From Lytechinus pictus (lineage: Eukaryota), in assembly GCF_037042905.1 (NCBI RefSeq), contig NC_087245.1, positions 25,980,001 through 26,044,000 on the forward strand: a DNA stretch of 64,000 nucleotides, given 5' to 3'. The position numbers and the translations under genes were made by a program. Of the stretch, positions 4,590 through 43,350 are shown piece by piece. Every line of letters starts with the position of its first letter. The stretch's first letter is position 1. Under the pieces are notes generated by a model that saw only the letters and a program-made list of their open reading frames with translations, made no database searches and had not been told where the DNA came from.

Positions 4590-4644
<55 letters not shown>

Positions 4645-7112: not shown

Positions 7113-7143
<31 letters not shown>

Positions 7144-10100: not shown

Positions 10101-13100
10101 ATGATCTCAACTGGAACAAGTTTACAGCACTCAAAGGCAGGACACATGATGTTATGAGCATTTCCCTCCGCTATCTTTCCTGAAAGATATCTGTAAAAGG
10201 AACAAGTGGTAATGTACAGAGTTACTTGCCTTTGAAAAATCTGTATTTTAGAAATTAGGGGCATCAAAAAAAAATGTTGCTTCCTTTTGTCATGGGATAG
10301 CATTCATGTTTACCGTTGTATTGTTCATATTAAGATATAACAATTTTGTTCATTGCATGATGTTTAAAAACTGAACTATTAGCCTGTCTACTCGTACTGT
10401 TTTATGGTAAGCTACATGTGAACGATTAGTCTGTTTATTTGTAAGTTACATTGCTATTGCACATGCCTTTCTCTTGTCTCCAAATTTTAAATGTAATATG
10501 TTTGAGAGGGTCATGCAAGCATGCCAAATTTCAGACTTCTGCCTGCCATACGAATGCATTGCGAAATAAATTCCATTACTGAATTGAATCAAATGTCATA
10601 AAATAATGTTCAAAAGCTGAATGATTGTGTTGAGTACTAACCTTTCCCAGCACATTTTACAGAAGTGATGATGACAAGGCATCTCTACCGGTGATTCTTC
10701 CCCTGATATCACTTCTGTACATATATCACACTGAAAGATGAAAAAAACATGAACATAAAATGAGATGGCTTCTCAATTCTATCCTTATCAGATTCGTGGG
10801 TGTTTCGTCAGGTGACACAACATATGCTCCTGCGACATTTGCTGTGGTCTTAATATCTCAGAGGACATAAGGTTAGAGTTAGGATTGTGTATAGGGCGTA
10901 TGAAATAATAATAAAATAAAACAAAACCAGAATGAAATGAATATATAAATAAATTCAATAAATAAATGATTAAACAAAATCACCCAATCAATAACCTGAC
11001 AACTACATGTAGGAAAACTTTATTTCATTTGATTGCAGTTTTATGCTAAATTCTGAACATCTACATGTATTATTAGGTTTTCATAGTCTGAGATAAACCA
11101 CATATTTTGGCTACTGAGCATTATAAAACTTTATATCAGGTTATTAGGAAAAGGATTACGGCAAGAGGAAAATACAAACCCACATTTCCATTAAAATAAT
11201 TTTTTATAATCTTTGTTCGTTTAAAAATACATTGATAGAAACTGATGCCATTCCTGCTTTTCTTTCATTCTTATTTTTTACAGTTTAATGAAATCATTGT
11301 ATGTTAAGTATTTTATGTTGGGGAGCCTTGTAAAATAAATTACAAATCAAAAATTGAATTGAAGTGAAGCCGAAGTTTACCTCAGTTTCGTCCTCTGCCA
11401 CATGCCGAGTTTCAGGTTCATTATCAATAGTTGTTAAGGTATGGTCTTGTATTGCATGTTCTACTTCATCTGGGGACTTCACACCAGATTTCTCACAGCA
11501 TTCCTTGGGATTTGAGATCCATTCTTCTAATAAAACTTCTCTTGACCATTCTAAAGTGGGGGAAAACACAATTTTATGCTCATCAAATGAAAATTCAATC
11601 TACACATATCAAAAACAAATGAATTACCCATAACACAATCTTTAATTCTAATTACATTGCACCGATTCAATTTTGGAGTTAGTGTGGCTTTTCACTATTC
11701 CACCTAATTTTGAGTGCCTCATTCTGCCTTTTGAGGGAAAAAGGAAGAGAAAATGTTTATTCTACATATCAAATAAAACAATTAATATTGGTATTACAAA
11801 TCATGAAAAATCCAAGGAATTATCACCCACGTTATGTTGCATACAGCTGATGGTACATTACTCATAACTTTACAATAACTTCCGACTAATGTACCTATAC
11901 CGGGCGGCGCCAGGTGGGCCAGCCCAGTGCTCTGAATTTGGGCCCGGCACTCATGGTAAAACAACACTTCATCGCTCAGCACAAATTCCCCTACAATAAC
12001 ATTACTTGAGTAATGTGAATAAATTATCTCAATCTGGTTCTTTCATTAATTACAATATTTACCCATCAGTCATTTTATTAAATATAAAATGCTTTCATTA
12101 CTATCAACATAGCACCCCAAAAAACAGTAGAGAATGACAAACAAAATTTTACCATAGTTTCTGAGAAGAGCTTCAGCAGTGAAAAGTGGAACACGAAGCA
12201 TATCTGCGGTTTCAACAACGAGGGCATCCTTTGCTTCTTGTAACTCCTGTGGTTTCAGCCCAACATAGCTCTGAAGGAAAATGTTATAAAATAAAGCTTT
12301 ATTACTTCATCAAAAATATAAAACAATGCCCCAGAAATCCCAAGTTTACATTAGGATCACAATGCAGGAACTTATGCATAATAAATTACACAATATGCTT
12401 CCTGAAATCAATTTGCAGCATCACAATATTTTACTTTTTGTTTATAAGGATTAAATCTTTTCTTTCCTGTTTTGATCATGCAGTTAATCCACTAATAAGT
12501 ATTTGTAAGAATTAAAACCGTGCATGACTTGTCAGCGCCAATTATTCTTATTTGCGACCTGTCTAAGGATTGGAAGTTTCCACATACATACACATGTAGA
12601 CTCCTGTATATGAATTGACTATGTTAAATCATTATTATCCCTTATAATGAAGTAGATGTAGAAAATGTAAAGTGTAGTAAAAATAAAAGGGTACTCCAAA
12701 CTAAAGATGAAAATATCTAAATAAATTCTTAATAAATAGAGTACAAAAAATTGTAATGTTGGTGAGTTCAGAAAATAAGCCATATGTTTCTTAAAGGAGA
12801 ATGAAACCCTTGAAACCAGCTGAATCCATATCATAGAGAAAAATCAAAGAAACATATTGTTGAAAGTTTGAGGAAGATTGAATGAATAATAAGAAAGTTA
12901 TGAGCATTTGAATATTGAGATCACTAATGCCATGTAGATCCTCCCATTGGCAATGCGACCAAGATCTGTGATGTCACGCACGTACAACCTCCTCATTACT
13001 TTAGTACTTATTTCACTTATATTCTCACTTTTATAGAGTCTATCACAAGGTGAGGTGTTCTCTTTATGAGAGGACAAGTACAGAGGTTTCACAACATTAT

Positions 13101-16100
13101 ATCATTGATGAACCGTTTGTCATATGATTAGAATGAGCAAAAGGAGATGTTTTGGGGTATATTTTCAGTGTCCAAAAGGGGAGAGTTGTTCATCTGTGAC
13201 ATCATAGATCTTGGTCGCATTGCCAATGGGAGGATCTCCATAGCATTAGTGATCTCAACATTCAAATGCTCATAACTCTTCTATTGCTAGTCCTATTTTA
13301 CTCAAACTTTTGTTGATCTTATTCTTTGATTTTTCTGCTTTCACAAAAGCTAACTTGCTCCAAGAGTTTCATTCTCCTTTAAACCGAACACATCTATGCT
13401 GGGATATGAAATACATGTAGGTATGCTAATGTCATGTCCTCATTTTCCATTTTCTTTTTTTTATTACATTATATCATAAGTATTTTCAAACATTGTCACT
13501 TGCAACAATAACTATTTTACATAATAAAATTGTAGTCAATCCCATTTTTACATTCTTGGAGGGCGAAAATTTCAATAAATGTACTTTCATATAATAGAAT
13601 ACAATAGCATAGTTGGGGTAGGGCATCATCAGCTAACTCACTACCTATTTTGTTGCACCAAAAAAGAAAAGGGTATAAAATGTCATAACTTTGCTATTCC
13701 TTGTCTGATTTTGATGAAGTTTTCAGGGTTTTGTTTATATGATATTACTATATCTGTTTAAAGTGTATAATTTCTGAGAGTACCCCTTTAACTAATACAT
13801 GTGTATTCAAGAGTGCTTGATTAGGAAACATTTAGCATAAAGAGTATAGTTTCTGCAAATTATTTACTTACCTCTTCATATGATATTGCACTTAATTCCT
13901 CCACGACTTCATCTTCACTCATTTGCTGAGGGTAATAGAAAGAACAAGAATAATAAATTGTACTGGCTGTAGATAATAAGAGCCTGGCTAAAGTTTTGTG
14001 CACATAAATTCAGTACTGTAAATTAACATTAATTCAAAAGCCTTTGATTCCTCGTGAAAATCTAAATTTCAACTATTGGTATCTAGTTACCTATCTCATA
14101 TCAGTAATGTTTATATTTTTCTTTTTTTTCAAAAATGCCATTTAAACTACAGAACAGTTTTTTTTTAAGATTGAGTATAACACTTTTCACAGACTTCATT
14201 TATCACATTTGAAGTAAAAGAACTTCTTTGTTTTATGCATCGCTTATGCTGCATTGCCCATTCATTGTATACCTTGACTTGGTCTTGGGCATGGGGTTCA
14301 AGCCTTAGCCTAAGCCTTATACTTGGCCCCAAGGTTTCATTCCTTGACTACACTACCATCTTTATCATTATTATTATGAATATACATCAAATCATTCAAT
14401 GATTCAAAACTGCATGAGTTCATAAAATAAGTATAATGTAACTGTAAGAGAGAATATGAAGAGGAAAAGACATGGTAGAGTTACACAAAGATCCATAAAA
14501 CTGTACAAACAGAGAAAAACTTACCGAAAAGACCATTTTAGACTCAAGAAGCTGAGCAATGTCGTAATATCGATTCTTTTCAGCACAGTCACAAGGAGTC
14601 TCTTTGTCGCCATTCTCTACAAACAAACACGCACCATTCTCCAATAACGTCTGAAAAATATAACAAATAATTTGTGTATAAAACATGTATGGTTAAATGC
14701 TAATGAAAAAGACGAGTCAAGACAAATGTAAAGACTGGTATTCTGTGTTTTTCATATTTCTCTATATTTTTCACCATAATCCCACTTTAGGCAAAAATAT
14801 AAAAATACAGAGCTTTTGGTACTGAATATTATGGGCAACTTTTACCAGTATATACTTGTCAGATTAAACAAGTACAGATGTATATTTGAAATGAATGCAA
14901 AGTTTAAGGCATTTCTAAAGCTTATAAGCTATTAAATAATGTTTAGATGTTGGACAATCATTCAAAATTCCCATGACACAACAGATTAATGACTGATATA
15001 TATTTTTTTCATAAATTTTTATATGAAGTATTGGAAAGAGTCTATTGATCGGGATTAGCCACCTCTATTGGTAATGCTATCATTTTTCTCAATATAGGTA
15101 CTTCAAACAACTATGAATACAATTATTGCATAACAGAAAGCTTTATGCAAAGTGTATCCTCATTTCTTTGTGCAATTCCATGCTTAAAATGTAGTTTTAT
15201 ACTGACAAGGAAAACAAATTGGAACCAGACTTTTTCTATTTTTACATGTTCATTATAAAGTACCCATGCAGATGGAAAACAAATTGAATAGATCATATCT
15301 CTCACACCATGTGTTATGATATACACTTACATCTCATATAATGAATTCTAAAATTGAAAATGAGTAATTTCTTTATTTACCAAACCTTAATACAGATGAT
15401 AAACTGGAATAAATTCTGACATCTAATTCAAATTATTGAACACAACACTGATGACACCTTTTAAATTTTCCTATAACCAAAATTAGTCAAGACCTGGTAT
15501 CAAGAGATTACTTTGAAATATGGAACAGTGATCTTACTTTTTTTAATTAAAAATTTTATTTTTACAAAATCCATTATTAGTACAACATATAATACAATGT
15601 ACGTGTAACAAATAAAACGCTGATGAGAGGCATATCTTTTAGTTTCTGATTAATGACCTTTTATTTCAAATCATCTCCCGAAACTGATTTCTGACGAACT
15701 CAATAAAGTATTCCCAAGTCCAAGAATACAACTAAAGATACATGTAATTAAAACTCAGTTTCTCAGGATGATCTGAAATAAAACATTGAAAATCAGAAAC
15801 TCTCAATCATGAACCTGTAAACTGAGTTTCAATGATTACTTTGTAATTATAGGTTTTATTACCTCTACTAATGATCTGTAGCCAGCGGCTGCTGCATAGT
15901 GTAAGGCCGTACATCCTTCCTAAGAGATCAAAACAGAAACAAACAGCATTTGAATTCAGTAAAGTCTGCTTGCATTGGGATTCCATATAATAAATACCAG
16001 AAAGTGAAGATGAGGCATTTTCTAGTGCAGTTTTCAAGGGGTTCACGAACATCTTGTGAAGGAGGGGAATGTCAAATTCCAACATTTGCATCTTAAGTGG

Positions 16101-18320
16101 CCAAAATGTGCCATATTTGCGCTTACAATTGAGAAGCTTCATAAATCGTTCATGGGAATCAATATCAGAGATCGTAAAGAAAAGGTGCTTGATGCTTTAT
16201 CATTAGTTGTAGAATTAGGTTTTTTATGATTATTTTCTTCTTGTATCTAACCCAAAACCTTGGATTTTTGCATACACTATTTTTCAATCAAATATTCTGC
16301 ATTTCTTTGGGGTTAAATTGTGATTTGGTTTGTTTTGCCACCATTGTTTCCATCAATTTTATTATTTTAATGTCTGAATTGATTTGATAATATTTACTGT
16401 TATGAGTACTTACATCATCTACTGCATTGACGTCTATCTTTTCCCTTTCACCGTTGCCAATCGGTATCCCTTGCCAGTTGAGGATGAGACGAAGACACTC
16501 TGCTCTTTTCTTCTCAGGGGGTTGAGAGTAATAGTACTGTGAATAGCTGGACGTAGATGATGGAGGGCGGGGTAGATCACTCATGCATACACAATGTAGA
16601 GATGTTTGGTTGCTCATGTTACGCTTAATAGGGCTTCCATTATGCTTCTGAAGAAACAATCTAAAAATTAAAAGCACAGACAAATTTGTAGTAATATAAT
16701 CATTCTCAAAAGTTCAAAATGAATTACATGCACATTGAATTATTTGTGAAATTGTTACGAAGTTGATATATTAAAATATTTCAGATTCAAACTGGATGGA
16801 ATTTTTGGGATTGGTTTATGGTTTGCAGATCAGGGACCCGTTTCATAAAGACTTAGTCATTATGGCTACTACCATGGCAACAGGTCTCAGCAGCCAATCA
16901 AAATCAAGGTTAACATGGTAGTTGTCATAATGGCGAAGTTACAACAGTTGTAACTCATTATGAAGTGGGCCATAAATATACAAGACCTGGCACAAGAAGT
17001 AACCCGTTGTACTGCAGTAGAGTACATGAAGTAAAAACAAACAGGATGTCATGTTCTGTTTGGTGAAATAAAAACAAAATGTGTAATACTGTACAAGATT
17101 GTAATGTGATCTGAAACTGTTTTCAATTTACATTACTAACAATATCTCTCCTGAAAAGCCTGTGAAACTACCAAACCTCATTCTCACCAGTGTCAATAAC
17201 TCAACCGATGATCCTGTGAAACTACCCATTCCCATTGTTGGCAATAATAACAATAATTGTATTTGCTTTTATAGATAGCACCTAAAACTTTTAGAAGTCT
17301 ACTAATGCTCTAATAATGCAGCATAATTACCCTGGCTTCAGCAGAGCAGCTGTTATGCTCTCAGCGTTTCAAGGAATATATTCTGGGGCCCGTAACACAA
17401 AACCTAGCAATGATTGTAGGACATTTTTCTACGATTGGTTCCATTGACAACACTCTACAATTCATCGTGGAGCATATGATCAATCGCTATTACCTTTGTA
17501 TTACGGACCCAGGACAGGTACCCAATTTACCTGAGCTGGGTTGAATTCAGCACATTATGGAGAAATTTATTGCTGAAGAACACTGACACCTGCAGGGCCC
17601 CATTGCATAAAGTTACTATTATACATGTAGTAACTTTGTTATTTAATGGTAACTGCCATGGTAACAACGTCAATTAGCCAATCAGAATAAAGGATTTCAG
17701 GGAAGTTAACATTAGATGGCAATGTTACTATAGTAGTAAACCTTTAAGCAACAGGGACCAGGAGTAGGGTTTGAAACAACGACCCTCTGATTAGGAGACT
17801 GAGGTCAGAACCACTACACCATGACACCTCCATACCCATTCACACTCTTCGCAATAATGGGTCGTGTGGTCCAGTGGTTAGAGCATTGGACTCAGAATCA
17901 CAAGGTTGTGAGTTCGAATCCCAATTCTGCCATTGTCTCCACTTTGATAAAAGGCCAGAGAGTGATATCTGTCGTCTATTAACGTCAGCCACTATGACTG
18001 ATTAACCAAGCCGTAAAAGGTTTCCTTGGTAATTGGTTATATACCAGCTTGTCGTTTACCAGCAAAATGCTGTCCTGTTGAGTTCCTATGGGAGTTACTA
18101 TAAACAGACAAAACAGAAACAGAATAACTCACCTGACAAGTCTGTGCATTCCATGTCTACATGAACAGTGAAGAGCCGTATTATGATCATAGTTCTCTCC
18201 ATAGGAGATGTTCGGATCAAACGTCTTTTGAAAGTCTTGGCTATGATGGTAAATTTCCTCAGCTGTTTTCTCATCCCCCGAATGGAGGGCTTTCCGAAAC
18301 TTGGACGAACTGCTTCCCAT
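412..18320 (-). CDS. ANKIB1: Ankyrin repeat and IBR domain-containing protein 1 (RBR E3 ubiquitin ligase), spliced CDS of 18 exons; 856 aa if the TAG at 412-414 is used, otherwise continues beyond the window start
   Basis: 18 GT-AG exons join in frame (2571 nt incl. stop): [12 protein letters not shown] start, ankyrin repeats, [22 protein letters not shown]1 ([14 protein letters not shown]), IBR ([22 protein letters not shown]), RING2 ([23 protein letters not shown]), Ariadne region, UIM-like helices. Confidence 0.95.
1100..1238 (-). CDS. ANKIB1: ANKIB1 coding exon 17 (UIM-like helix)
   Basis: 139 nt, [22 protein letters not shown]...; AAG acceptor, GTATGT donor. Confidence 0.8.
1250..1366. 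repeat. (AAT)n-like microsatellite next to the exon 17 acceptor
   Basis: Degenerate AAT/GAT/CAT triplets. Confidence 0.9.
1540..1779 (-). CDS. ANKIB1: ANKIB1 coding exon 16
   Basis: 240 nt, [30 protein letters not shown]...DDDSADE; donor GTAGGC. Confidence 0.9.
2587..2726 (-). CDS. ANKIB1: ANKIB1 coding exon 15 (Ariadne domain)
   Basis: 140 nt, [34 protein letters not shown]...IFEFMQ. Confidence 0.94.
3628..3784 (-). CDS. ANKIB1: ANKIB1 coding exon 14 (Ariadne domain)
   Basis: 157 nt, [35 protein letters not shown]. Confidence 0.94.
4114..4248 (-). CDS. ANKIB1: ANKIB1 coding exon 13 (RING2 end)
   Basis: 135 nt, [32 protein letters not shown]. Confidence 0.95.
4292..4718. mobile_element. 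MITE with 14-bp TIR and 6-bp TSD
   Basis: CAGACCTGCCAACC...GGTTGGCAGGTCTG flanked by AATATG on both sides. Confidence 0.85.
5504..5634 (-). CDS. ANKIB1: ANKIB1 coding exon 12 (RING2, catalytic Cys motif)
   Basis: 131 nt, [34 protein letters not shown]. Confidence 0.95.
6217..7192 (-). mobile_element. Helentron-associated / DINE-1-like non-autonomous element, family 1, with ~160-bp internal tandem array
   Basis: Subterminal IR GTCTCACCTGCAT (6239) / ATGCAGGTGAGAC (7175), terminal hairpin, (GCC)n tract, TGACCTTTGACC units spaced 162, 163 and 192 bp, T-rich ends, no TSD. Confidence 0.8.
7435..7523 (-). CDS. ANKIB1: ANKIB1 coding exon 11 (IBR end)
   Basis: 89 nt, [29 protein letters not shown]. 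Confidence 0.93.
8359..8572. mobile_element. Short GG/CC-ended MITE (Harbinger-like; similar elements at ~9870-10020, 16832-16972, 33220-33376, 34730-34947)
   Basis: GGCCCGTATTCTGAAG/CTTCAGAATGCAGGCC imperfect TIR. Confidence 0.6.
8655..8827 (-). CDS. ANKIB1: ANKIB1 coding exon 10 (IBR)
   Basis: 173 nt, [21 protein letters not shown]...[10 protein letters not shown]; donor GTCAGT. Confidence 0.94.
10046..10190 (-). CDS. ANKIB1: ANKIB1 coding exon 9 (RING1 C-half)
   Basis: 145 nt, [26 protein letters not shown]...FLQFDIK. Confidence 0.94.
10642..10730 (-). CDS. ANKIB1: ANKIB1 coding exon 8 (RING1 N-half)
   Basis: 89 nt, [29 protein letters not shown]. Confidence 0.94.
11381..11550 (-). CDS. 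ANKIB1: ANKIB1 coding exon 7
   Basis: 170 nt, [24 protein letters not shown]...EDETE; TAG/GTAAAC. Confidence 0.92.
12153..12270 (-). CDS. ANKIB1: ANKIB1 coding exon 6
   Basis: 118 nt, [39 protein letters not shown]. Confidence 0.93.
12795..13378. mobile_element. Kolobok-like non-autonomous element with long TIRs
   Basis: TTAA flanks, AGGAGAATGAAAC/GTTTCATTCTCCT ends, inverted arms of ~180 bp. Confidence 0.8.
13872..13925 (-). CDS. ANKIB1: ANKIB1 coding exon 5
   Basis: 54 nt, [21 protein letters not shown] acceptor, GTAAGT donor, phase 0/0. Confidence 0.8.
14525..14650 (-). CDS. ANKIB1: ANKIB1 coding exon 4
   Basis: 126 nt, [25 protein letters not shown]...[17 protein letters not shown]. 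Confidence 0.93.
15863..15919 (-). CDS. ANKIB1: ANKIB1 coding exon 3 (ankyrin TALHYAA)
   Basis: 57 nt, [27 protein letters not shown] boundaries; frame differs from the ORF track. Confidence 0.92.
16414..16660 (-). CDS. ANKIB1: ANKIB1 coding exon 2 (ankyrin)
   Basis: TTTTAG acceptor, [25 protein letters not shown]...IDVNAVDD, donor GTAAGT; 247 nt, phase fits. Confidence 0.92.
17245..17830 (-). mobile_element. Family-B SINE interrupted by two short MITEs (~17385-17511 and ~17594-17760)
   Basis: SINE B segments resume after GGGCCCGTAACACAAA/TTTGTATTACGGACCC and GGGCCCCATTGC/GCAACAGGGACC inserts. Confidence 0.6.
17859..18124 (+). mobile_element. tRNA-derived SINE, family A
   Basis: A box TGGTCCAGTGG, B box GTTCGAATCC, (ACAGAA)n tail; close copy at 40307. 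Confidence 0.88.
18133..18320 (-). CDS. ANKIB1: ANKIB1 coding exon 1 (start codon; 188 nt)
   Basis: ATG at 18320, [20 protein letters not shown]...[16 protein letters not shown]; donor GTGAG at 18132. Confidence 0.93.
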
Positions 18321-19362
18321 TTTGAAGGCGCACAATGTAGTCTTTATTCAATCCTTTTTTTATAAATGGTTCCAATGACTGCTCAAATATGACACCAGCG
18401 TTCACAGAAGCAAATCTATAAAGAAATATGACCCCATTTCTCTTCTAAGAAGAAGTTGCTTGGTAGTTACATGTACCAACACAATATTGTTCATGATAAT
18501 ATAACACTGACACAGTGTCCAAGATATCCAGTGTTCTCTTCTTTATTGATTTCTGTTTGGAATTCAAATAAATTCATATCCAGGTACTTATTTTATTTCA
18601 GTCAGGAGAAAAGGAAAGACACAAGACTGCCACCAATGTCTAAATTAAGTAAAGACATCAATAGCTTACAGTTGATAATAACCATGCTCATCACCACATG
18701 TATTTCCCTTGACTCCTTGATCAGTCCTACAGTATGTCTTTCAAATGTTCCTGAACTTCTCTAATGTCAACAGCACACTTCCTTAATCCATTAAATAAGT
18801 GACATCACTTGATAGGGTAGTGGCTACCTTCTTCGTTAAAGATGAGGGCATCAGTCGAGGGAACCCTCAGAATTGACTTCCTGTTGGGGTTGGCCTGCTA
18901 ATCATCATCTCCAAATACAGGGTATCTTGAATGAGGCCGCAGAATACGCGACAGGTCATTGTTTCACTCTATTCTATTCTGCAAGATCTCATTTCGAATA
19001 AGAGCTCATTACGAACAAGAGCCCTTGACAAACCTGATTATCGCTCAAGTACTATCAAGTTTGCTCTAAAAGGTATTAAAAATCACCTTCATCATGGGAA
19101 TAAACTAGAAACATGCATCAGTCATCCTATAGCTATGCAGGTACTTCATATGGAGGTCTGAACTGCTGGACTTGCTACAATGTTTTGGACCCCCTATAGG
19201 AAGATCATCTTAACTTTCTTTACCAAGACATGTACAGGATACATGTAGTTGGTTGACACTGAATGGATGTACATATTCTGATCACATCTTGTAGAATCCA
19301 AAAGCCAGTTGCTCACAATAGAATTCCAGGAGTCCCATGTTTAACTCATCAATGCACCATCA
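18321..19362 (-). other. Putative ANKIB1 5' UTR sequence upstream of the start codon (two candidate acceptors: 19362 and 18415)
   Basis: Strong acceptor CTTTTTTTTCTTTTTGTTGCAG ending at 19363; second acceptor TTTCTTTATAG ending at 18416; sequence between looks repeat-free. Confidence 0.5.
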
Positions 19363-20543
19363 CTGCAACAAAAAGAAAAAAAAGACATCTTTAGATTCAA
19401 ATTAAACTCTATTCTACATCTACATGTACATGTGCAAAATGACATTAATATTATTCGAATGCATGTACAAAATGCAAACTGAGTTTTCAGTCGTGCAAAG
19501 CACAGAATAGTATACAAATACTAGTAGGCATGTATGTACGGTACATGTACATGTATTCAAAGAAATCATGAGTGTGGGCCTATGCATGCTACGTTACATT
19601 ATGCTTAAATTATAAATTCTCAATTATAGTGATTTCAATGTTTTCATTGCATTCTCAATTTAGAAAAAAGAAATAGTTAATGACTAGCTACATGTACATG
19701 TATGTATACAAAACAAGAAATATTATTCAGAAGTGGGACAACTACTGCATTTGAATTAAAAGAACAGTACACTTTCATATTTCTTTATAATACATGTACA
19801 TGTAGGGCCTACTGCTTCCATTCAGGACTTTAAAAAATTCCAAAAGGCGAAAAGGGTAACGAAAAGGAGACACGGTACATGTACCTCTATATGGGAACTG
19901 AGACTGCTGCTAAGGACACAGGGGAATATTATCATTTAGTCATACAAGAACATGTAACTGAAAGGAAGGAGAAGAGGGCTGATTCATATTGATACAACTC
20001 AAAAAACGCAATGGCCTCCGGCAAAACTCCTAAATCACCTGAACAATACATATGTCTCACGGACGTACTTGTGCATACTGGTACTATTTTATAATGAATG
20101 TGTCACAAAATGTCATAATATCAAATTCACAGGGGATCTGGTTAGATTGCTAGTCTATTTTAATAGGCATGATGAATGTCTTTTACTTTTAGAATAGAGA
20201 AGGGAGACAGGAACAAACACTAAAGACGAAGGAGGAGGGGGAGGAGAAGGGGGAGGAGAAGGGGGAGGAGACGTACATGTAGGAGCTAAAAGGGTTAATA
20301 AAAGGGGAGAAAGGCCAGGGAAGATAATGATCATGTAATGATGATGATGATGATGAAGATACATGTATGATGAAGGAGAAAAAAAAGAACACCCCCCCCC
20401 CCCCCCCGGCCCTAGTAATTTAAAAGTAAAGTAAACAGAATCATCAAAATTTAAGTCCTAACCATGATGCCTACATACAGTAATGTCCATGTAATGTACA
20501 TGTATATGTACATGTACATGGAGGTCTGTACATGGACATTTTC

Positions 20544-21037
20544 TTTGTTGTAAAACCTGTGTGCATGTGTGCAGTGCATGTGTACATACTGCTGGGTATG
20601 TAATGACAATTAATTCTTTGGACTGTGCTCAGTGTGCTGAGTCACCGTAGAGCTATAACAAATTAATATCATCATTTGTCTCTACTTGTCAATAATTCAT
20701 TTCCCAATTCATACAGGTACATCACATACATGATGTACATCACACTTATCCCCAAAGATTATGTCAGATTTCTATCATAGCAATTTTTGTTGTAAAACCT
20801 GTGTGCATGTGTGCAGTGCATGTGTACATACTGCTGGGTATGTAATGACAATTAATTCTTTGGACTGTGCTCAGTGTGCTGAGTCACCGTAGAGCTATAA
20901 CAAATTAATATCATCATTTGTCTCTACTTGTCAATAATTCATTTCCCAATTCATACAGGTACATGTACATCACATACATGATGTACATCACACTTATCCC
21001 CAAAGATTATGTCAGATTTCTATCATAGCAATTTTTG
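20544..21037. repeat. Recent 242-bp tandem duplication
   Basis: 20544-20785 repeated at 20786-21033, identical except a 6-bp gain in copy 2; TTTG microhomology at the junction. Confidence 0.95.
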
Positions 21038-21534
21038 AACTGGTAAATGAAAATTCCATGTTTTCCCTGTAAAGACTACGGTCTACTGGGTGTACTGTAC
21101 AGTGTGTGACTTGGTTCAAGTATTGGAGATTAAGAACCTCTCATTGCTATGGCCCCTCATCAGAAAGGGGGAGAATTTCAGTAAAATCGGATGGAAAACA
21201 AATTGTTTTGTGAGATTTCAAGAATCAAAGTGAAGTTCTTCTGTACTGCAAGTTTGAATAAAAATCAGATGAAAAATGAGGCTGGTATCTGAGCACATAC
21301 ATGTACAGGCCTACTATTACTATGTCATTTTAAAAGTCTGATTGAGAACAATTATGACAAATTTTGAACAATGAATAATCTACTGTATCAAGAAATGTAG
21401 CTGATAATGTCCAGGTTACCAAAAATATTTGCCTTTATTTTTCCTGCTTTTAAAAACCAACCTACAATGTTCTGTATGTATGTATGTATGTATTGTCAAG
21501 GTGAACTTTCTCAAAAGGGAGAGTTAACACAAAG

Positions 21535-21730
21535 TATAATAATAATAATAATGATAATAATAATAATAATAATAAAACAATAATAATACTAATAATAATG
21601 ATAATAATAATGATAATAATAATAATAATAGTAATAATAATAATGATAATGATAATAATGATGATGACGATGATGACGATGACGTTGATGATGATGATGA
21701 TGATGATGATAAAAAATGATAATAATAACC
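21535..21730. repeat. (TAA)n/(TGA)n compound microsatellite
   Basis: Direct reading. Confidence 0.92.
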
Positions 21731-22199
21731 AATTAAAGAAATGCAATATTGATATAGGTTTGACGAAAATATAAATGAAGTTGTGAATTTGTCACATTTT
21801 AGATTTGGGACATCAAATTTATGCAAGCAGATAGAAGCAATTTCCCTCATAGTAGGCCTAATGTCTATTATATTAATATTCTAAAGAAAAAACATCAAAA
21901 TGGTTAAATCTATTGAGTCTCATCAGTCACATCAATTCATGAATGCTTCAATAAGACAAATATTTTCAATGATCATTACTGGGTAAACAATTTTTTTTTA
22001 AACATGGGGGAACTGCTCAAATATGACATCACAAATTCATAACAATATTATGATGGTTTTTGCAAAGCCCCTCACTAATATTTTACTCTATTACATTCTA
22101 CTTTCATTGAACCCTCACCAATTTTTATAACTTAAGTTACCTGCTTTATTGAAACCAATAAATCAGGATAAACTAATCCTTTAAAAGTACAGTATAATT

Positions 22200-22485
22200 T
22201 AATAATAATGTGTTCTATTTGTATAGTGCAGCTACTACTCTACTGCGCTTGATACATGGTATTATATATTACCCTGGCTGTAGCTGAGCCACCGTATAGA
22301 CACTATTTGCATTCAAGGAATAAATCCTATCGGGTACCCATTCTGCCATCACCTCACCTGGGTCGAGTGCAGCACAATATGGGTAAATTTCTTGTTGAAG
22401 GAAAACACACCATGGCTGGGATTCAAACCCATGTCCCTCTGATTGAAAGACGAGATTCGTAACCACTAGACCACGATGACCCCAC
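22200..22485 (-). mobile_element. tRNA-derived SINE, family B
   Basis: Minus strand TGGTCTAGTGG...GGTTTGAATCC head, CTCGACCCAGGTG...ATGGGTACC core, (TTA)n tail. Confidence 0.75.
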
Positions 22486-24769
22486 TGGAAACTTCTACCA
22501 GTGTATTTTAAAATGTGGTTTTCCTTCTCTCTTGATTTCTCTTTGCATGCATGCACAGTTTAAGTTCATAAAGGTTGACATTAATTGATGCCAGATGGAT
22601 CAAGTTCAATGGAGAGTAAACAAAGCTCACTCGAAATAAATGTACAGAGAAAATTAGATTTACACTGGATTCTAACTAGGGTGGGGATGTAGAATTCTCC
22701 ACGCTATTGCCAGATGTTAAAAATTACGAGAGTACATGTGCAGTCCAATGTATTGACAAATTTTTAAATGCTACATGTATGCTTAATAAAATTCCAACAT
22801 GGATGTCTTGGAAGCTCCCCATGTACATGTAGGCTCAGGGAATTCCTGTTTGACCCAGTAGAAAAATGAGTCAAAACATTTGAGGGGTCCAGAAATGGCA
22901 AATAGGGTGAATTTTCTTCAATTTAAAGCTTCCAGTGAGTGAAGCAAGTGAGCAAAAATTTTGTTGTTTTTTTCATATATATATATTGACATAAAATTCA
23001 GAAAATAGTACATCTTTCAGATTTTTTTTATTTCCGTTTTCTTTTTTTTTTGGCCTTGGTCATGAAAATTTGTGAGGAGGGTGGTCCATTGCCCCCCCCC
23101 CCCCCACCTGTACATGTACACAACTGATTTAACCTAAAAGTGAACAACCATTACGACAGCAGCTGAGACTGTGATTTTGATTATGAATCCTGAACAACAA
23201 ACTGTTGTCTAAAAGTTATCTAATTCCCCCTATGATGACATACTGTCAGATCTGCCAAGTCTTATCTATTTATATCTCCATTCAACAGATAAAATTAAAA
23301 TTGTAAAGATTATATACAATGTACATGTATTACCTACGGTACATGTCGGACAGAAGATCTCGTAGGAATTAACTCTCATATAGACAGTGTCCTTTCAGTG
23401 AGTGTGACAATAAAATGTAATTCTGATTTTCCCAAATAGAGCATACTCTACATCTATTGTAGGCCTACTGCTCTTCAGTGGATTTAAATCAAAAGGTTTC
23501 AGATCATCTCACACCCATGGACACATGTACACGTTCCTGTACACCTGTACACACTGAAGTTCTGATCTACTGTCAAGAAATTTCTAATGGATCAACTCAA
23601 GAAATGATTATGTCAGGCCCTAATCACTAAAAATGTTCATTAAGTGGCGTAAAGATCTTACCATATGCACATGTACATGCACTTGTAAGCAAGAGGCTGA
23701 GGGATACATGTGCAAGCCATATGGTATGCTGAGTAATACATAAGATGCAATACCGTACAGTGTATTATAATGGTTCATTTCTCATAGGCAAGTTCAGGTT
23801 CATGTACATGTACTTGAAGGTTAAGAATGTGATGGAGGTCATGGTTCATTTTAACATTCATAAAATATATTAGCAGTCAGACCTTATCAATGTCAATGAT
23901 GCCTAAGGGCCCTTTTATCAAGCTGTTCATAATACAGTAAGTTACAAACAAAAAAATCGCATTCGACTTTACACTCCACTGCCGACCCGTTCTTGCACTA
24001 AAATGAGATACATGTACAAGATTTTACTTGACTTAATGATTTTTCGTATCCCCCCAAAAAATAGAAATAATGAATGAATAAAAAAAAATAAACAAATAAA
24101 TAAATAATATATAAGTAAATGAACAAATTTATAAATTAATTAATCGATTAAATAAATAAATACATTTGACAAGATAAAAAAATAAATAATGAATAATTGA
24201 ATGAATGAATGAATGAATGAGTGAGTGAGAAAGAGAGTGAGTGAATGAATGAATAAATGAATGAATAATAAATAATTAAATAAATAGTGAATGTCACTAA
24301 ATTATACATGTTCATGAAGTAAAGGCCATCCAAGCAAAGTTGGGGGAGGGGGGGTTCTGTCACCGTTAAACCACTCTTTCTTGTCCATTTCAATCAAAAT
24401 TTCTTGTCCATAATTGATATAGTGCGACAATATCCCCCCCCCCCATGTATTTCAATTCCACATTTCATACCCATGTTTGTTAAACATCTCTAGTTCTGCG
24501 ACCAAATTTTTCATTATTCAAAATCACTCAAGCATGACCATCTAGATGGTAAATTTCAGGTCTATTTGCATACCATTTGTTACTCTTTCCGTTATCCTAC
24601 AACAAACTATCTAGACTGGCTACTCGGTAGAAATGCTCTGGCACATAGCTGGAAACAGTCATTAATAGTCACATATTTGCTCTTTAATTCAAGGGGAACT
24701 TTGGGCTTAGATATGTTGGTCAATTTTTTTTTTTTTGAAGTATTGTAAGAAATAAATGAATCACTAATA

Positions 24770-25035
24770 AATAATAATAATATGCAACACTATAGCACTT
24801 AATAAAATAGTGCTGTGCACATACTATTACCCCGGCTTTAGCACGGCTACCCTGATTGGGTGCTCGAGCATTCAAGGAATTCCTTTCTACGGGGTACCCA
24901 TTTACTACACCTGGGTCGAGAGTGGCAAATGTAGATAAACACCTTGCCAAAAGACGCAAGTGCCATGGTGGGATTCAAACCCCGGACCTTGTGGTTCAAA
25001 GTTTAGAGGCTTATCCACTGTGCCACAACACCTCT
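24770..25035 (-). mobile_element. tRNA-derived SINE, family B
   Basis: Same ACCTGGGTCGAG / GGGTACCCATT core and tRNA-like head. Confidence 0.75.
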
Positions 25036-26495
25036 AATGATCAAGAACTATAAAAGTGCAGTTTATTAATGCACTTTCTCAACAAAGGTACACATGTACA
25101 AATCTAAGCATGATAACAATCTAAAATCAAGGTAAGTTTAGAGAAAATTGGGGGATACGTTTTTACCTCACATTAATCAGTAAAGCAATCATGTATTTAT
25201 AGGAAAGTGTTTATGTTTGAAAAGAGCACTACTGATTTGGAAGAGAACAATTATAGAACTAGGCCCATATACTTTCCAAGTAATGACGATATTTCAAAAA
25301 CTTAACCTTTGGTTAAGATTTGATGTTGACAACACCGACACTGCCGCCGCCGCTTGATTTTAGGTCAGCAGGCTTAGTTCACAACCTTCACAACGGGAGA
25401 GTGAAATTATTAGATCGATCTCAGTACTACCACCGCGCAACACCAAACCAGTGATGCTTGCATGGGAGCCGGCGGTAGCCGCGCGCAGTCTGTTCAGGAA
25501 CTAGCCGATAAGCCAATTCTGCTTAAATTAGAGCTAGCCGATCTAGATGTTGTCCAGATCAAGGAGATGGGCCAATTAGAAGTAGATTACCAACATCGGA
25601 ACCAACATTTTTCGTTCAAACTTTAATATGGAAGGGATATAAAACAAATATACCGGGCGTTTCTTTCAAAAGTGTAGTGGAAATATTTTATCCTCGATTG
25701 GTCCGGCAATGCAACTGCATGTATTTTCCCTCGGGTTAATTGCTGAACCAACCTCGGCTAAAAATATTTCCAAGTACTTTCTCATACCCAGTATGTATAC
25801 TACATGTATATGAGTTATAATAGAAAATGTTGATCCAGATTTTAAATAGACCCAATGTAAATTTTTGGAAAATGTCAGTTTTTGCTTGTAATTGCCCTTT
25901 TAGTTTCAAAGTCAAGGTAGGCCTACCATTTCAAAACTTAACATTGCCTAAGATTTCAAAGTTGATATCACAACACAGTCAAAGTTCATTGACCCTAATG
26001 AACTTTGATAATCATGTACCGGTAACCTAAAACTCAAGCAGTACTACATATAGGATCACTGATCAGTGATAGCAGTATTAATTATGCTTTTCTTAGACCC
26101 TCTAACATTTCAAACAAGGTGGTTCAAGAACCATGAGTCTCGCCTGATTTTGTGATCAATATGCAATAGGATCTTTTTATCCTGGATGACCTTTGACCTT
26201 ATCATCCTCATGAACAGACCAGTGAATACATGTAGAGTAGAAATGGTTTATTGAAAAAAATATAAATCATTTGCGGTCCAAAGGTCGAATTACAGATTTT
26301 CATACATACACTGTCATGTAAAACCAAATACATCACAATGAAAAACGAAATAATGAAAAGCGGAAATGAAAATACATGTATAATATCAAAGAACATTTAT
26401 GATCACATGCATTGATCAGGAGCCAGAGGTAAATGATACATGTATGTATACATGTACTTATGATGACAATCTATCACCACTGTACCATAATATAA

Positions 26496-26877
26496 CAGGG
26501 TGCTACATAACTTTTTAGAAGCGCTTGCCCAGTCGGGCAAGTAAATTTTTAAATAGTTGGAATATACTTGCCCAAAAATCTCTTTCACTTGCCCAAAAAA
26601 ATCCTTGAAAAAAAAGTTATAAACCATTGACCTTTTTCTCTTTTCCAAAGTGATTCTATCTTGCCTGCCATGACCAAAATTAGGGTCAATATCTTATCAT
26701 ATCATATCGACACTAATTTTGGTCATTCTACCGTGAGAATTTTGCTTTCTACTGTGTGAATTTCGTTTGCCCAATTCGGGCAAGTAGTTTTGGTCTTTAC
26801 TTCAAAACACTTGCCCAACTCTAACTTTTACTTACCCCGGGCAATCGGGCAAGTGCTTACATGTATGTAGCACCCTA
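26496..26877. mobile_element. hAT-like MITE
   Basis: TIR CAGGGTGCTACATA/TATGTAGCACCCTA, perfect 8-bp TSD TAATATAA, subterminal CTTGCCC/GGGCAAG repeats. Confidence 0.88.
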
Positions 26878-27479
26878 TAATATAATGATGTATAAGTATA
26901 TAATGAAGTATAATCATTTTAATGACCATTTATAAGATTTTCATTGTCATCATTACTATCAATATCATATTACTATTATTTTTATCATTCACATTATCAT
27001 TATTATCCAAAAATTAACTATTGCACATAAAGAAGCATTCACGCTTTAAAAAACACTTATAATCGAAAAATAAAAGGAGATTTTCTATCATAAGTTACCA
27101 ATAAATGCACTGATTACAATCATGTAGGTAATTTGAACTTGTATCAACTGACAAAATAAGGCTATGATTCTGCAGAATTGCTCACATTGAAATAATAATT
27201 GTAAAAAGGTATTTGGTATATTATCAAGATAATTTAAATTCCGAAAGGCTTACTAATTTTTCTCAAAACATTAAGTGACACACACATTAATTGATATACA
27301 TATTAGAGCAATTGGCAAAAGTATGTTAATGCAGTTGTTATGAACATGAAAAACATTAAATAACATCTCAACATCTAAAAGCAAATTAGGACTGAGCTGT
27401 AAAAAAATACATGTAAACATCGTGCACATTTGTACACTTATTGAGCACTTAGTATAGTGGCATTAACCAATTATAATTT

Positions 27480-28435
27480 GTACAAAGTTTATACGCAATT
27501 GATATAGAAATTTTAAAAAATGAGAGCAAGTTGAACAAAAAATTGAAAAAATTGACAAAATCTCACATTAGACCTTTTGACTCTTAGATAACTTTGACCC
27601 TATCATCCTCAACTACATGTACACATATATGTGGTATTACCCAAGGATCATTTGTACCAAGTGTAAACACGTTGATGCAGAAATAATTTGATATAAAGAA
27701 ATGAGACTAACACTAAAAAGGATGGACATGACCTCATATCACTTGACCTTTTACCTCATCATTCTCAATCTCAATCGACACACATGTGGTGGTATTATCC
27801 AAGGATCATACAGTGTATGTACCAAGTGTGAACATATTTGATGCAAAAAGGAATGAGAGCAAGTTGAACAAATACTTCAAATAAGGATGGACATGACCTC
27901 ATATCCTTTGACTTTTTGACCCCTAGATGACCTTTGACCCATCATCCTCATTAACACACATGAGGTACACTGTATTACCCAAGGACCATATCTATGTACC
28001 AAGTATGAACATAAGTGATGCAGAAATAAAGAATGAGAGCAAGTTGAACAAAAACTTTAATACTTTTGTAACAGACCAGGATAAGTGATCACTAATGACT
28101 AGGTCTCTGCCGAACTTCGTTCCGGTGAAAACTTAACCTTGGTTAAAACTTTGACGTTGATACCCAAAACTTGATCAGTTTGCTAACCCGAAATGACCTT
28201 TGACCTAGGTCATGTTAACCTGAAACTCATGCAAGTGATACATGATAGACCTACTTTACCCTAAGTTATCAATGTCCAAGACAAGTTTCATGAACTAGGT
28301 CCAACCATAGGCTATAGGCCTACTTTCTAATGATGACATTTCAAAAACTTAACCTTGGTTCTCAATGTTGATAATGCCACCGTCGGAAAAGCGGCGCCTA
28401 CATGTATAGAGAATCACTCTACAGCAGACAAAAAA
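27480..28435 (-). mobile_element. Degenerate family-1-related element with tandem units (further fragments at ~25250-25355 and ~25925-26040)
   Basis: GTCGGAAAAGCGGCGCCTA end motif, TGACCTTTGACC units, CAAAAACTTAACCTT. Confidence 0.65.
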
Positions 28436-28749
28436 ATGTAAGAAATCAAGCTACAGTATCTAATACTAGGCAGTAGACCGTACCAGTTTACATCAGAAAG
28501 AGGATGGGTTTAGAAAGTTGGGGGATTAAGTTAGTAACACAGTCTAACGTTCAACTGTGTAGTGTGTAGACAAGTGTAACAACATTAAAATTTAACTATT
28601 TACGATACACATAGGATGAGGATATTTATTAAAATAAATTTAGAGAGCTAGACAAATCTAATTGACACTGAACTTTAATTTTAAACCATGAACTGATAAT
28701 GTGTAACTTTGTTTGAAATAACATTAACAAGCATATCAAATTAGACTAA

Positions 28750-29030
28750 CCTCAGCCTCGGCTCGAAATGGAAAATCGGCGTGTTTATAGAGATAATCGT
28801 TAAACGGCATTTACCCACGTTCATGTAAGTACCGGTATCCAAAATTTCAGATAACTTCCCTGTAGAAACAGACACGATGCAGTTTATTGATAAACCGCAT
28901 TGCGCAAAATACAGTTTCTCATAACCGCCTCTGGGAGGTGGTTATTGCCGTGTTGACGCCGTATTTGCGACGCGGAATGTGAGTTAATAGAATTATTCGC
29001 TCTGTATACCCAGTTGTTGTACGTCCGGAC
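28750..29030 (-). promoter_or_regulatory. CpG-rich putative promoter of ANKIB1
   Basis: Cluster of CpGs (TTGCGCAA, GACGCCG, GCGACGCGG) at the upstream edge of the CpG-depleted gene body. Confidence 0.5.
28751..28920 (-). other. Putative non-coding first exon of ANKIB1 (5' boundary approximate)
   Basis: Donor GAG/GTTAGT at 28751/28750 exactly where CpG-depleted DNA switches to CpG-rich DNA. Confidence 0.55.
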
Positions 29031-42154: not shown

Positions 42155-43350
42155 ATGGATACAGAATACTTGGATACTATTATATTAAAACATGTATGGA
42201 TATGAATACATGGATACGTGGATACTTGGATACTATTGGATACTTGGATACTTGGATACGTGGATACGCGGATACGCGGATACGTGGATACTTGGATACT
42301 ATTGGATACTTGGATACGCGGATACGCGGATACGTGGATACGTGGATACTTGGATACTGTTGGATACTTGGATACTTGGATACGTGGATACGTGGATACG
42401 CGGATACTATTGGATACTTGGATACTTGGATACGTGGATACGTGGATACGCGGATACGTGGATACGTGGATACTTGGATACTATTGGAGACTTGGATACT
42501 TGGATACTTGGATACGTGGATACGTGGATACGCGGATACGCGGATACGTGGATACTTGGATACTATTGGATACTTGGATACGCGGATACGCGGATACGTG
42601 GATACGTGGATACTTGGATACTGTTGGATACTTGGATACTTGGATACGTGGATACGCGGATACGTGGATACGTGGATACTTGGATACTATTGGAGACTTG
42701 GATACTTGGATACTTGGATACGTGGATACGCGGATACGCGGATACGTGGATACTTGGATACTATTGGATACTTGGATACGCGGATACGCGGATACGTGGA
42801 TACGTGGATACTTGGATACTGTTGGATACTTGGATACTTGGATACGTGGATACGTGGATACGCGGATACTATTGGATACTTGGATACTTGGATACGTGGA
42901 TACGTGGATACGCGGATACGTGGATACGTGGATACTTGGATACTATTGGAGACTTGGATACTTGGATACTTGGATACGTGGATACGTGGATACGCGGATA
43001 CGTGGATACTTGGATACTGTTGGATACGCGGATACTTGGATACGTGGATACGTGGATACTTGGATACTATTGGATACTTGGATACGTGGATACGTGGATA
43101 CGCGGATACGTGGATACGTGGATACTTTGATACTATTGGATACTTGGATACTTGGATACGTGGATACGTGGATACGCGGATACGTGGATACGTGGATACT
43201 TGGATACTATTGGAGACTTGGATACTTGGATACGTGGATACGCGGATACGTGGATACGGGGATCTTAGATACCTTTGGTTACATGGATACTTGGATACGC
43301 GGCTACGGGCACATGCCTACATGAAAACTTAGATACATAGATACTTGGAT
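42155..43350 (+). repeat. GGATAC satellite (8-bp TGGATACG/TGGATACT/CGGATACG units with 10-bp variants)
   Basis: Direct reading, ~1.2 kb. Confidence 0.96.

Follow-up and report, generated by a model that had tools for sequence, protein, structure and literature searches.

Probable excision scars of Tc1/mariner-type transposons crowd the first introns of two genes in the sea urchin Lytechinus pictus

Why should a single 8-base word, TACATGTA, crowd into one intron of a gene and be sparse in the rest of it? The window, meaning the whole 64-kb stretch of Lytechinus pictus DNA analyzed here, holds exactly 75 copies: 8 in positions 1 to 19362, 29 in 19363 to 28750, none in 28751 to 28999, 4 in 29000 to 51400 (0.18/kb), and 34 in 51401 to 64000 (2.7/kb). 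An earlier sequence-only reading had tallied 8, 29, 4, and 34, figures that the recount reproduces exactly, and had placed a density peak in ANKIB1 intron 1, where 3.09 copies/kb indeed stand against 0.41/kb in positions 1 to 19362. The locus is laid out as follows.

1 to 18113, minus strand: CpG-poor downstream gene body of ANKIB1, extending 12 kb left of the window; 0.46 sites/kb.
18114 to 19362, minus strand: predicted exon 2 of ANKIB1, its first internal exon, with a long 5' UTR and the first 66 codons.
19363 to 28750, minus strand: intron 1 of ANKIB1, a 5' UTR intron placed by splice consensus and RNA depth; 29 copies of TACATGTA at 26 sites.
28751 to 28900, minus strand: putative noncoding exon 1 and promoter of ANKIB1, placed by donor consensus and a CpG step; predicted start.
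29000 to 51400, no strand assigned: intergenic block flanked by the two divergent genes; 4 sites, at a CpG o/e of 1.03.
51450 to 64000, plus strand: 5' region of a giant LRP-family gene, start predicted from a CpG step only; the second peak, which runs past the window, has 46 sites over 20.7 kb.

The gene on the left is 99% identical to a Lytechinus pictus ANKIB1-like record, with its ATG at 18320. We infer that 18114 to 19362 is one continuous exon from RNA cover over 18462 to 19234. The stretch from 19363 to 28750 has a canonical polypyrimidine-CAG acceptor and a GT donor, and RNA depth, taken from one raw RNA run, is 3 to 4 over 18304 to 19631 and then 0.09 just above. No splice-junction read appeared among the rows listed, so that the intron boundaries are predictions. 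Beyond the putative exon 1, CpG o/e climbs to about 1.

Does the enrichment hold against a demanding null? Markov models of orders 1, 2, and 3 predict 1.9, 3.8, and 6.2 copies of TACATGTA in the entire window, and local nulls predict 1.2 (order 2) and 3.3 (order 3) in intron 1. At orders 5 and 6, the local expectation reaches 23.0 and 28.8 versus the 29 seen, because the sub-words of TACATGTA themselves train the model, which makes the comparison circular; with all copies collapsed to TA, the expectation is 0.4 to 2.7 (orders 1 to 5). The enrichment thus survives the noncircular nulls, being at least 10-fold over them. The genome-average density, from 40 random 10-kb stretches, is 0.22/kb; by extrapolation, the genome has an estimated ~180,000 copies.

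How do these copies arise? Most originated when the six bases CATGTA were inserted at a TA, irrespective of the flanks. At 16 of the 28 sites with sister repeat copies, the sisters carry plain TA (1 of 130 for the control word TTCATGAA; P = 1e-13); the remaining 12 comprise 5 substitutions, 4 inherited copies, 2 other cases, and 1 mixed case. A motif-blind scan gave the same picture, in that 5 of 6 derived 6-bp insertions are TA-xy-y'x'-TA palindromes, 3 of them TACATGTA. No CATG template lies adjacent to the empty sites. Four loci that overlap other sampled DNA (L001, L112, L120, and L127) were excluded from the all-against-all comparisons. The sole sister-bearing TACATGTA site within intron 1 is classed as a substitution on a poor alignment, and the lone motif in the mapped ANKIB1 coding exons (4.0 kb) is not an insertion relative to other echinoderm proteins. 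The instances in the window are as follows.

19542 to 19804, no strand assigned: three double scars, (TACATG)2TA, at 19542, 19689, and 19791.
27809 to 27817, no strand assigned: 7-bp sibling scar TACAGTGTA in ANKIB1 intron 1; insert missing in 3 of 4 sisters.
54642 to 54649, no strand assigned: TACATGTA, with plain TA and no 6-bp insert in 121 of 125 sister alignments.
54932 to 54939, no strand assigned: TACATGTA within a 153- to 163-bp repeat, with plain TA and no 6-bp insert in 115 of 127 sister alignments.
55858 to 55865, no strand assigned: TACATGTA insertion; plain TA in 13 of 21 sisters.
57433 to 57440, no strand assigned: TACATGTA insertion; plain TA in 9 of 10 sisters.
59840 to 59847, no strand assigned: TACATGTA insertion; plain TA in 4 of 4 sisters.

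The double scars at 19542, 19689, and 19791 reflect either two rounds per site or slippage. One-mismatch neighbors indicate a decay of ~3% per base; by this measure, the TACATGTA scars are young.

In total, these observations point most likely to a small scar left at TA by a departing cut-and-paste transposon, and there is a strong case, in which we have high confidence, that CATGTA was left behind as an excision footprint by Tc1/mariner elements, and by their MITEs, with CA..TG ends. In this mechanism, an element would enter at TA, duplicating the TA, and on exit would leave two terminal bases per side; end-joining with fill-in would then yield TA-CA-TG-TA, and elements ended GG..CC and CC..GG would likewise give TAGGCCTA and TACCGGTA. 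Since the scars are fixed, excision would have taken place in the germ line.

Several lines of evidence bear on the source. Terminal bases that match the inserted letters exist in the genome, namely, Tc1 elements with TA/CAGT and TA/CACT ends and an intact DD34E transposase, four CA-ended nonautonomous (MITE) families, and a pogo-type TA/CCG end, derived by comparing two copies, that fits the CC/GG sibling scar. No convincing GG..CC-ended source family was found, and a relaxed inverted-repeat scan of 25 DDE_1 loci returned no complete CA-, GG-, or CC-ended element. Scar variants one base longer are enriched (TACAGTGTA, 4.2-fold; TACCGGGTA, 4.6-fold with 6 copies; TAGGGCCTA, 7.5-fold) and name the third terminal base; TACCAGGTA and TAGGACCTA reach only 1.6- and 1.5-fold. 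The flanks, too, carry a signature: A occupies position -3 of scars at a frequency of 0.51 versus 0.335 at all TA (P = 1e-16), or 0.44 versus 0.30 once array-like neighbors are removed (P = 7e-10), and 60 of 262 scars have ANN-TA-NNT flanks, compared with 11.7% of all TA (P = 3e-7). This A at -3 and T at +3 is a transposase target preference in the style of Tc1 and of Sleeping Beauty, whose target consensus is ANNTANNT (PMC8934666). No TACATGTA site was observed with an element still in place, and the cases of an element in a TACATG-TA context (L022) are indirect. Repeats dominate the reads, and the 12 indels listed, from a set with 714 further ones, include no CATGTA. The young Tc1 family (29 of 30 copies used; L156, with one end missing, was omitted) targets ATA/TA/TAT, with A at -1 at a frequency of 0.86 versus 0.41 at scars, and so is probably not the main scar source.

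Other footprint geometries fare poorly. A Sleeping Beauty-type footprint comprises 3 bases of one element end, and a Minos-type footprint comprises 4. The words expected of the former, TA-CAG-TA (126 versus 106 expected, 1.2-fold) and TA-CAC-TA (81 versus 91, 0.9-fold), are not enriched, which speaks against that geometry; the Minos-type words TA-CAGT-TA and TA-CACT-TA reach only 1.3- and 1.1-fold, and the sampled DNA contains no TA/CATG inverted-repeat pairs, which together speak against the second. A candidate sibling scar, TAGATCTA, is frequent in random DNA (27 versus 4.4 expected) and was rejected since it does not follow the hot/cold pattern (0 in hot versus 2 in cold blocks).

Where do the scars lie within a gene? 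In the two genes examined, scar density from the transcription start to the first internal exon is 3- to 6-fold that of the rest of the same gene, and first-intron density is ~12- to 15-fold that of neighboring intergenic DNA. ANKIB1 has 26 sites in the 9.4 kb of intron 1 (2.77 sites/kb) versus 14 in the 30.1 kb of its 3' body (6-fold; P = 4e-8), at nearly identical CpG o/e (0.42 and 0.41); the 3' body is not significantly denser than the intergenic block (P = 0.10). The sequence-only reading had proposed that density tracks gene-body-like DNA; taken as a rule about CpG-poor sequence in general, this is not supported, since the equally CpG-poor 3' body has so many fewer sites. The broader link to transcription units is supported, given that the second peak, at 51.4 to 72 kb, is the 5' region of the divergent LRP-family gene. 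Across the 40 genomic stretches, DNA more depleted of CpG shows a weak tendency to greater density (rho = -0.36; P = 0.02). The intergenic block had been described as nearly lacking the motif and rich in transposons; its 4 sites compare with 5.0 expected at the genome average, which is no depletion, and its detectable repeats (33%) match those of the motif-rich LRP block (32%), with 18% in the ANKIB1 intron 1 block, all measured with a limited repeat library.

The drop in density appears to follow a landmark rather than a common distance. Density steps down ~10 kb (ANKIB1) and ~21 kb (LRP gene) from the predicted starts, and the change-points, 19200 (support, 16700 to 19400; at exon 2 of ANKIB1) and 70150, bracket the first internal exons. 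No exon of the LRP-family gene was detected up to 72198, outside the window, a stretch in which undetected small exons may lie. A step placed at the exon has an AIC of 271.5, compared with 277.5 for a step at a common distance and 284.6 for exponential decay, a margin of 6 over the next model that comes from two genes with predicted transcription starts; taken by itself, the LRP gene is fitted about equally well by a step and by decay (log-likelihoods of -105.5 and -105.9). Sibling scars share the pattern: intron 1 of ANKIB1 contains four copies of TAGGCCTA, three of TACAGTGTA/TACACTGTA, and one of TACCGGTA, and the GG-type scar TAGGCCTA occurs 10 times in 31 kb of hot blocks versus 5 times in 78 kb of cold blocks (P = 0.002). 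What is new is this shape of density; the footprint itself is textbook for Tc1.

What makes first introns so rich in scars? Their crowding hints that chromatin decides where scars form. The best overall explanation, on which we are evenly poised, is that the words are CA..TG footprints whose first-intron excess comes from chromatin-favored, scar-leaving excision and end-joining; that first-intron chromatin, acting at excision or at repair, causes the excess is a proposition that we rate slightly short of even. Elements in first introns would excise more often, or their breaks would close by NHEJ and leave a scar, while breaks downstream and in intergenic DNA would more often be repaired from the sister or homologue, without one. 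Two observations argue against insertion bias alone: young Tc1 copies are unbiased, and GG-type scars follow the same bias. Precedents for the histone argument are mammalian and are carried over to the urchin by analogy: H2Bub1 drops past the first internal exon (PMC4199367), and H3K36me3 directs breaks to HR (PMC4615830). The C. elegans germ line uses HR rather than NHEJ (PMC13148408), and germ-line NHEJ in urchins is therefore an assumption.

A close rival, which we consider a serious though minority possibility, puts the bias at insertion: a pogo/Passer-like family or its MITE would target the open 5' part of germ-line-active genes, with selection purging intact copies there while the 6-bp scars persist. 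Such preferences have been described, as Passer (pogo) insertions favor gene 5' ends and highly expressed genes (PMC9976928) and ZB (Tc1) insertions lean toward enhancers and active starts (PMC7913693). The urchin genome has DDE_1 elements (76 matches), and a scar flank logo unlike that of the young Tc1 family implies that other families contribute. However, the only family tested, young Tc1, is unbiased, with 29 intact copies in average DNA (CpG o/e of 0.72 versus 0.70; P = 0.92) and 26 TACATGTA motifs in the 88 kb around them, a test weakened since this family is probably not the main source. Moreover, CA- and GG-type scars are patterned alike, so that unrelated families would need one preference, and 6 intact or partial CA-ended MITE copies, a tiny sample, lie outside hot blocks (5 motifs in ~21 kb of flank).

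Could scars instead form evenly and merely be kept unevenly? We think it improbable that intergenic and downstream DNA is simply younger or more constrained and that long first introns retain scars. First introns are indeed long, and nonrepeat DNA exceeds repeats in sites per kilobase in every block. Yet repeats 70 to 96% identical to sister copies hold 10 sites in 7.8 kb of hot blocks versus none in 15.2 kb of cold blocks (P = 2e-5), including none in 6.7 kb of the intergenic block, a comparison in which families differ between blocks and age is overstated, being read from the best identity within a 1-Mb library. The scars are also young. Farther down the LRP gene, three long gaps (28.8 kb in all, which may hide exons) are scar-poor (0.35/kb versus 2.2/kb; P = 1e-9), and short introns there are denser (1.13/kb). 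These figures disfavor both repeat age and intron length as causes.

First introns are rich in regulatory DNA. Does selection retain TACATGTA there as a protein site for an Irx-type homeodomain or Myb-related factor? A citation in PMC3520976 gives the word as the preferred site of Irx, and PsMyb37 binds it in Phytophthora (PMC11134190), but its insertion origin and transposase-like flanks, the like distribution of the different words TAGGCCTA and TACAGTGTA, and ~180,000 young copies, too many for site-by-site selection, make this very improbable; some scar copies may have been co-opted later as predicted binding sites. Least credible of all is an origin without any transposon, by CpG decay, (TACATG)n slippage, or an end-joining reaction writing CATG between two TAs: TG/CA is raised in CpG-poor blocks, 5 of the 28 testable sites resemble substitutions, and slippage could give the excess of doubles (10 seen versus ~2.7 expected at random), but the TG/CA excess is equal in hot and cooler gene blocks, other CATG-centered octamers are unenriched (CACATGTG, 9 versus 8.3; AACATGTT, 24 versus 19.3; GACATGTC, 2 versus 5.7), and the genome's element ends match the inserted letters. 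Insertion origin and equal CpG o/e across the 6-fold density gap within ANKIB1 speak against CpG decay, and 245 singles, 17 doubles, and 0 triples among 262 sites, together with template-free empty sites, speak against a hexanucleotide microsatellite.

To generalize further, we speculate, tentatively and with more doubt than belief, that sea urchin and probably other marine genomes carry at least ~100,000 fixed Tc1/mariner scars as a fossil map of germ-line chromatin, with density set by a first-intron domain, bounded by the first internal exon, that favors end-joining. If so, a count of one octamer in an unannotated assembly would reveal past germ-line transcription, where genes start, and which repair pathway was chosen. 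The Tc1 footprint is regarded as a rare product of the laboratory or of somatic cells. Should the footprint reading hold, excisions with no element remaining would have added ~1 Mb (~180,000 x 6 bp) to this genome, unseen by repeat annotation; scars would far outnumber intact copies, and transposon activity would therefore be much above the impression given by copy number. Such scars would also account for a motif that motif-finders would label regulatory, and the Phytophthora promoter word would merit retesting as a footprint. If the step is general, counting alone could test, on an evolutionary time scale, which of the two, insertion of transposons or repair of breaks, is steered by chromatin in the germ line of an animal.

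How does this compare with known systems? The C. elegans Tc1 footprint, which PMC3520976 and PMC13148408 credit to Eide and Anderson 1988, is the identical taCATGta with the same geometry, a duplicated TA plus two bases from each end. There, 78% of somatic Tc1 excisions leave the +4 scar, and an empty site forms by end-joining, with NHEJ required (PMC13148408). The worm footprint is somatic and called rare in the genome, whereas that of the urchin is fixed, present at ~180,000 copies by extrapolation, accompanied by GG/CC siblings, and concentrated in first introns. The urchin scars resemble those of Sleeping Beauty, ZB, and Passer in their TA target, A at -3, T at +3, and short footprints (PMC8934666, PMC7913693, PMC9976928); the 3-base footprints of the Sleeping Beauty kind are unenriched in the urchin, and the ZB and Passer biases come from insertion maps in cultured human cells, while the urchin evidence is fossil scars. 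Histone marks in human cells likewise have their boundary at the first internal exon, not a set distance from the start (a 2010 study, as cited in PMC4199367); that boundary concerns histone marks, and the urchin boundary is read from scar density alone. Our literature searches found no link between that histone boundary and transposon scars, and the top matches of larger searches gave no description of TACATGTA or of fixed footprints in echinoderm or marine-invertebrate genomes; literature on the whole word was confined to Phytophthora and Magnaporthe. Phytophthora promoter motif-1, the PsMyb37 site, is the same abundant octamer (PMC3520976, PMC11134190), and its authors weighed a footprint origin and dismissed it by abundance and conservation (PMC3520976). 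Unlike that upstream motif, the urchin word is intronic, and its insertion at TA is seen directly.

The eight-letter word TACATGTA is very probably a Tc1-type excision footprint, a scar left at TA by an excised transposon. Within a 153-163-bp repeat family, the copies at 54932 and 54642 have TA-CATG-TA at a point where their sisters have plain TA. In 0.93 Mb of retrieved DNA there are 313 TACATGTA sites, and 28 have at least two alignable sister copies; 16 of these are empty TA in the majority (with five substitution-like, four inherited, two other, and one mixed), whereas the control TTCATGAA is empty in 1 of 130 (difference, p 1e-13). A motif-blind scan returned 83 derived insertions, six of them 6 bp long, and five of those six are TA-xy-y'x'-TA palindromes (three TACATGTA, one TACCGGTA, and one TACTAGTA). 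Flanking sequences at the empty sites are unrelated, so adjacent DNA was not the template for the insert. Inside 19363-28750, one TACATGTA site is testable and is not classed empty; a 7-bp sibling scar there, at 27809, is empty in three of four sister copies. The 153-163-bp tandem units at 6297-7103 and 54600-55844 form one abundant interspersed family, with 4864 first-look candidates genome-wide, and offer a useful neutral reporter of scar gain.

The word taCATGta is described as the Tc1 excision footprint, after Eide and Anderson 1988 (PMC3520976). Somatic Tc1 excisions leave a +4 scar in 78%, and empty sites depend on NHEJ, HR restoring the element (PMC13148408). The genome holds Tc1 elements with TA-CAGT and TA-CACT starts, a young Tc1 family (>100 equal-scoring matches, 1896 bp, intact DD34E frame), four CA-ended non-autonomous families, and a pogo-type TA-CCG end. 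In 664 kb, sibling palindromes are enriched (TAGGCCTA 12.3-fold and TACCGGTA 4.7-fold, with TACATGTA at 12.6-fold), and the one-base-longer variants TACAGTGTA (4.2-fold), TACCGGGTA (4.6-fold), and TAGGGCCTA (7.5-fold), against 1.5- to 1.6-fold for alternatives, identify a third terminal base. Three-base and four-base single-end footprints show no enrichment. The flanks bear a transposase target signature: at -3, A makes up 51% of scar half-sites compared with 33.5% over all TA, and at -1, T makes up 15% compared with 32%. Both skews persist once array-like neighbours are removed. The Sleeping Beauty consensus is ANNTANNT (PMC8934666). In total, three of the five features that define a Tc1-type footprint were found. 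One-mismatch neighbours give a mean decay of ~3% per base, and thus the scars are young. Double scars are ~4 times commoner than random (10 versus 2.7), as expected if a scar, whose second TA is preceded by A at -3, makes a favourable target for another insertion; some doubles may come from slippage.

Several elements deserve separate mention. The young Tc1 family, with CACTAC ends, is often head-to-head palindromic with two oppositely oriented transposase frames (e.g., stretches L034, L037, L046, and L142), in forms with 0.9- to 1.0-kb inverted repeats at 99% identity, and is possibly active. Intact Tc1 copies at L022:864 and L032:898 lie directly at or adjoin a TACATGTA, as would be seen had an element re-inserted into an older scar. 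A TAGGCTA-TAGGCCTA run at 28305-28322, shorter in sister copies, may be two successive GG-type scars. At 12792-13381 lies a 586-bp TTAA-bounded inverted-repeat element with AAGG-type inner ends (7 loci in fetched DNA; related families of 584-591 bp), which, we presume, resembles Kolobok-type MITEs.

The sequence-only reading had counted TACATGTA by block, and its counts are exact (8 in 1-19362, 29 in 19363-28750, 4 in 29000-51400, and 34 in 51400-64000); with 0 in the gap at 28751-28999, this gives 75 in 64 kb where Markov orders 1-3 expect 1.9-6.2. Enrichment in 19363-28750 survives a local null trained with motif copies collapsed (29 versus 0.4-2.7, orders 1-5); raw-sequence orders 5-6 give 23.0 and 28.8, but these are circular, since the raw training sequence absorbs the motif signal. 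Forty random 10-kb stretches hold 89 copies (highest, 9), or 0.22/kb, extrapolating to ~180,000 genome-wide, so intron 1 stands ~14-fold above average. By the same density, the intergenic block, said to nearly lack the motif, is average rather than depleted (4 versus 5.0 expected). In the random stretches (L072-L111), TAGATCTA is 6-fold enriched (27 versus 4.4), but its distribution is not that of the scars.

The gene setting is as follows, with positions beyond the window end counted on the same scale (window-equivalent).

18320, minus strand: ATG of ANKIB1 (99% match to a Lytechinus pictus record); coding exons traced 12 kb past the left edge of the window
19363 (acceptor) to 28750 (donor), minus strand: putative ANKIB1 intron 1, both sites canonical by splice consensus
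72198 (window-equivalent), plus strand: first detected exon of a giant LRP-family gene with LDLa/EGF/YWTD exons; 69 exons mapped to 172.8 kb

RNA depth is 3-4 across 18304-19631 and drops to 0.09 above; together with the splice consensus, this supports the putative intron 1 boundaries proposed earlier. CpG o/e falls from ~1.0 to 0.3-0.4 at ~28.8 kb and ~51.5 kb, which we take as two divergent gene starts. The LRP gene, of LRP1/LRP2 type with at least 69 small exons (L002-L012, window-equivalent 72198-172757), and ANKIB1 are separated by a 22-kb CpG-normal block. A CpG-rich satellite of 8-bp units (ATACGTGG and variants; 66- to 74-bp higher-order period) and a related patch in inverted orientation, which closely precedes the LRP gene start, occupy 42170-43307 and 50621-50888. 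Scars at 18468 and 19240 lie within the putative ANKIB1 5' UTR, each adding a potential upstream start codon because the word has ATG on both strands.

Does density follow gene-body-like DNA, as had been proposed? A weak genome-wide correlation with CpG o/e (rho -0.36) says so in part, but the ANKIB1 3' body is sparse: intron 1 (CpG o/e 0.42) has 2.77 sites/kb and the 3' body (0.41) has 0.46 (p 4e-8), a density that does not significantly exceed the intergenic one (p 0.10). The observation is confirmed and its interpretation partly supported. Free change-points for the drop fall at 19200 in ANKIB1 (support 16700-19400) and 70150 in LRP (69450-73650), bracketing the first internal exon in both genes, although its distance from the start is ~9.4 kb in ANKIB1 and ~20.7 kb in LRP. 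Placing the step at these exons gives an AIC of 271.5, versus 277.5 for a common-distance step and 284.6 for exponential decay; since step and decay fit LRP alone about equally, the case leans on the two-gene contrast (9.6-19.6 kb from the start, 6 sites in ANKIB1 versus 25 in LRP, p 0.001). Intron length does not explain the drop, since in the downstream part of LRP three long gaps carry 0.35/kb and short ones 1.13/kb. DNA age is insufficient: among repeats that match sister copies at 70-96% identity, scar-rich (hot) blocks contain 10 sites in 7.8 kb and scar-poor (cold) blocks none in 15.2 kb (p 2e-5), in a small library whose families differ between the two. The first-intron step is real here, in two genes, and we lean slightly toward its being general.

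What mechanism might produce it? Scars may form more often in first introns, through a step shared by all families, such as excision or repair. The 29 intact young-Tc1 copies lie in average DNA (CpG o/e 0.72 versus 0.70; 0.30 motifs/kb), and GG-type scars show the same bias as TACATGTA, which together point to such a shared step. In mammals, H2Bub1 declines after the first internal exon (PMC4199367) and H3K36me3 directs breaks to HR (PMC4615830); HR of such breaks would erase a scar. By this analogy, we tentatively suggest that first-intron chromatin biases excision or repair. Against this, the young Tc1 family's stricter ATA-TA-TAT preference implies another main source. Elements might instead land more often in first introns, a somewhat less likely alternative for which Passer and ZB are precedents of 5'-biased insertion (PMC9976928, PMC7913693). 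The full mechanism, from footprint through first-intron bias, is an even call or slightly under.

The Tc1-type footprint is a known product; in the literature we found no report of its mass fixation in echinoderms. New here, on two genes, are the first-intron step and the finding that none of CpG depletion, age, or intron length is what causes it. In Phytophthora, the same word is regarded as a transcription-factor site (PMC3520976; PMC11134190).
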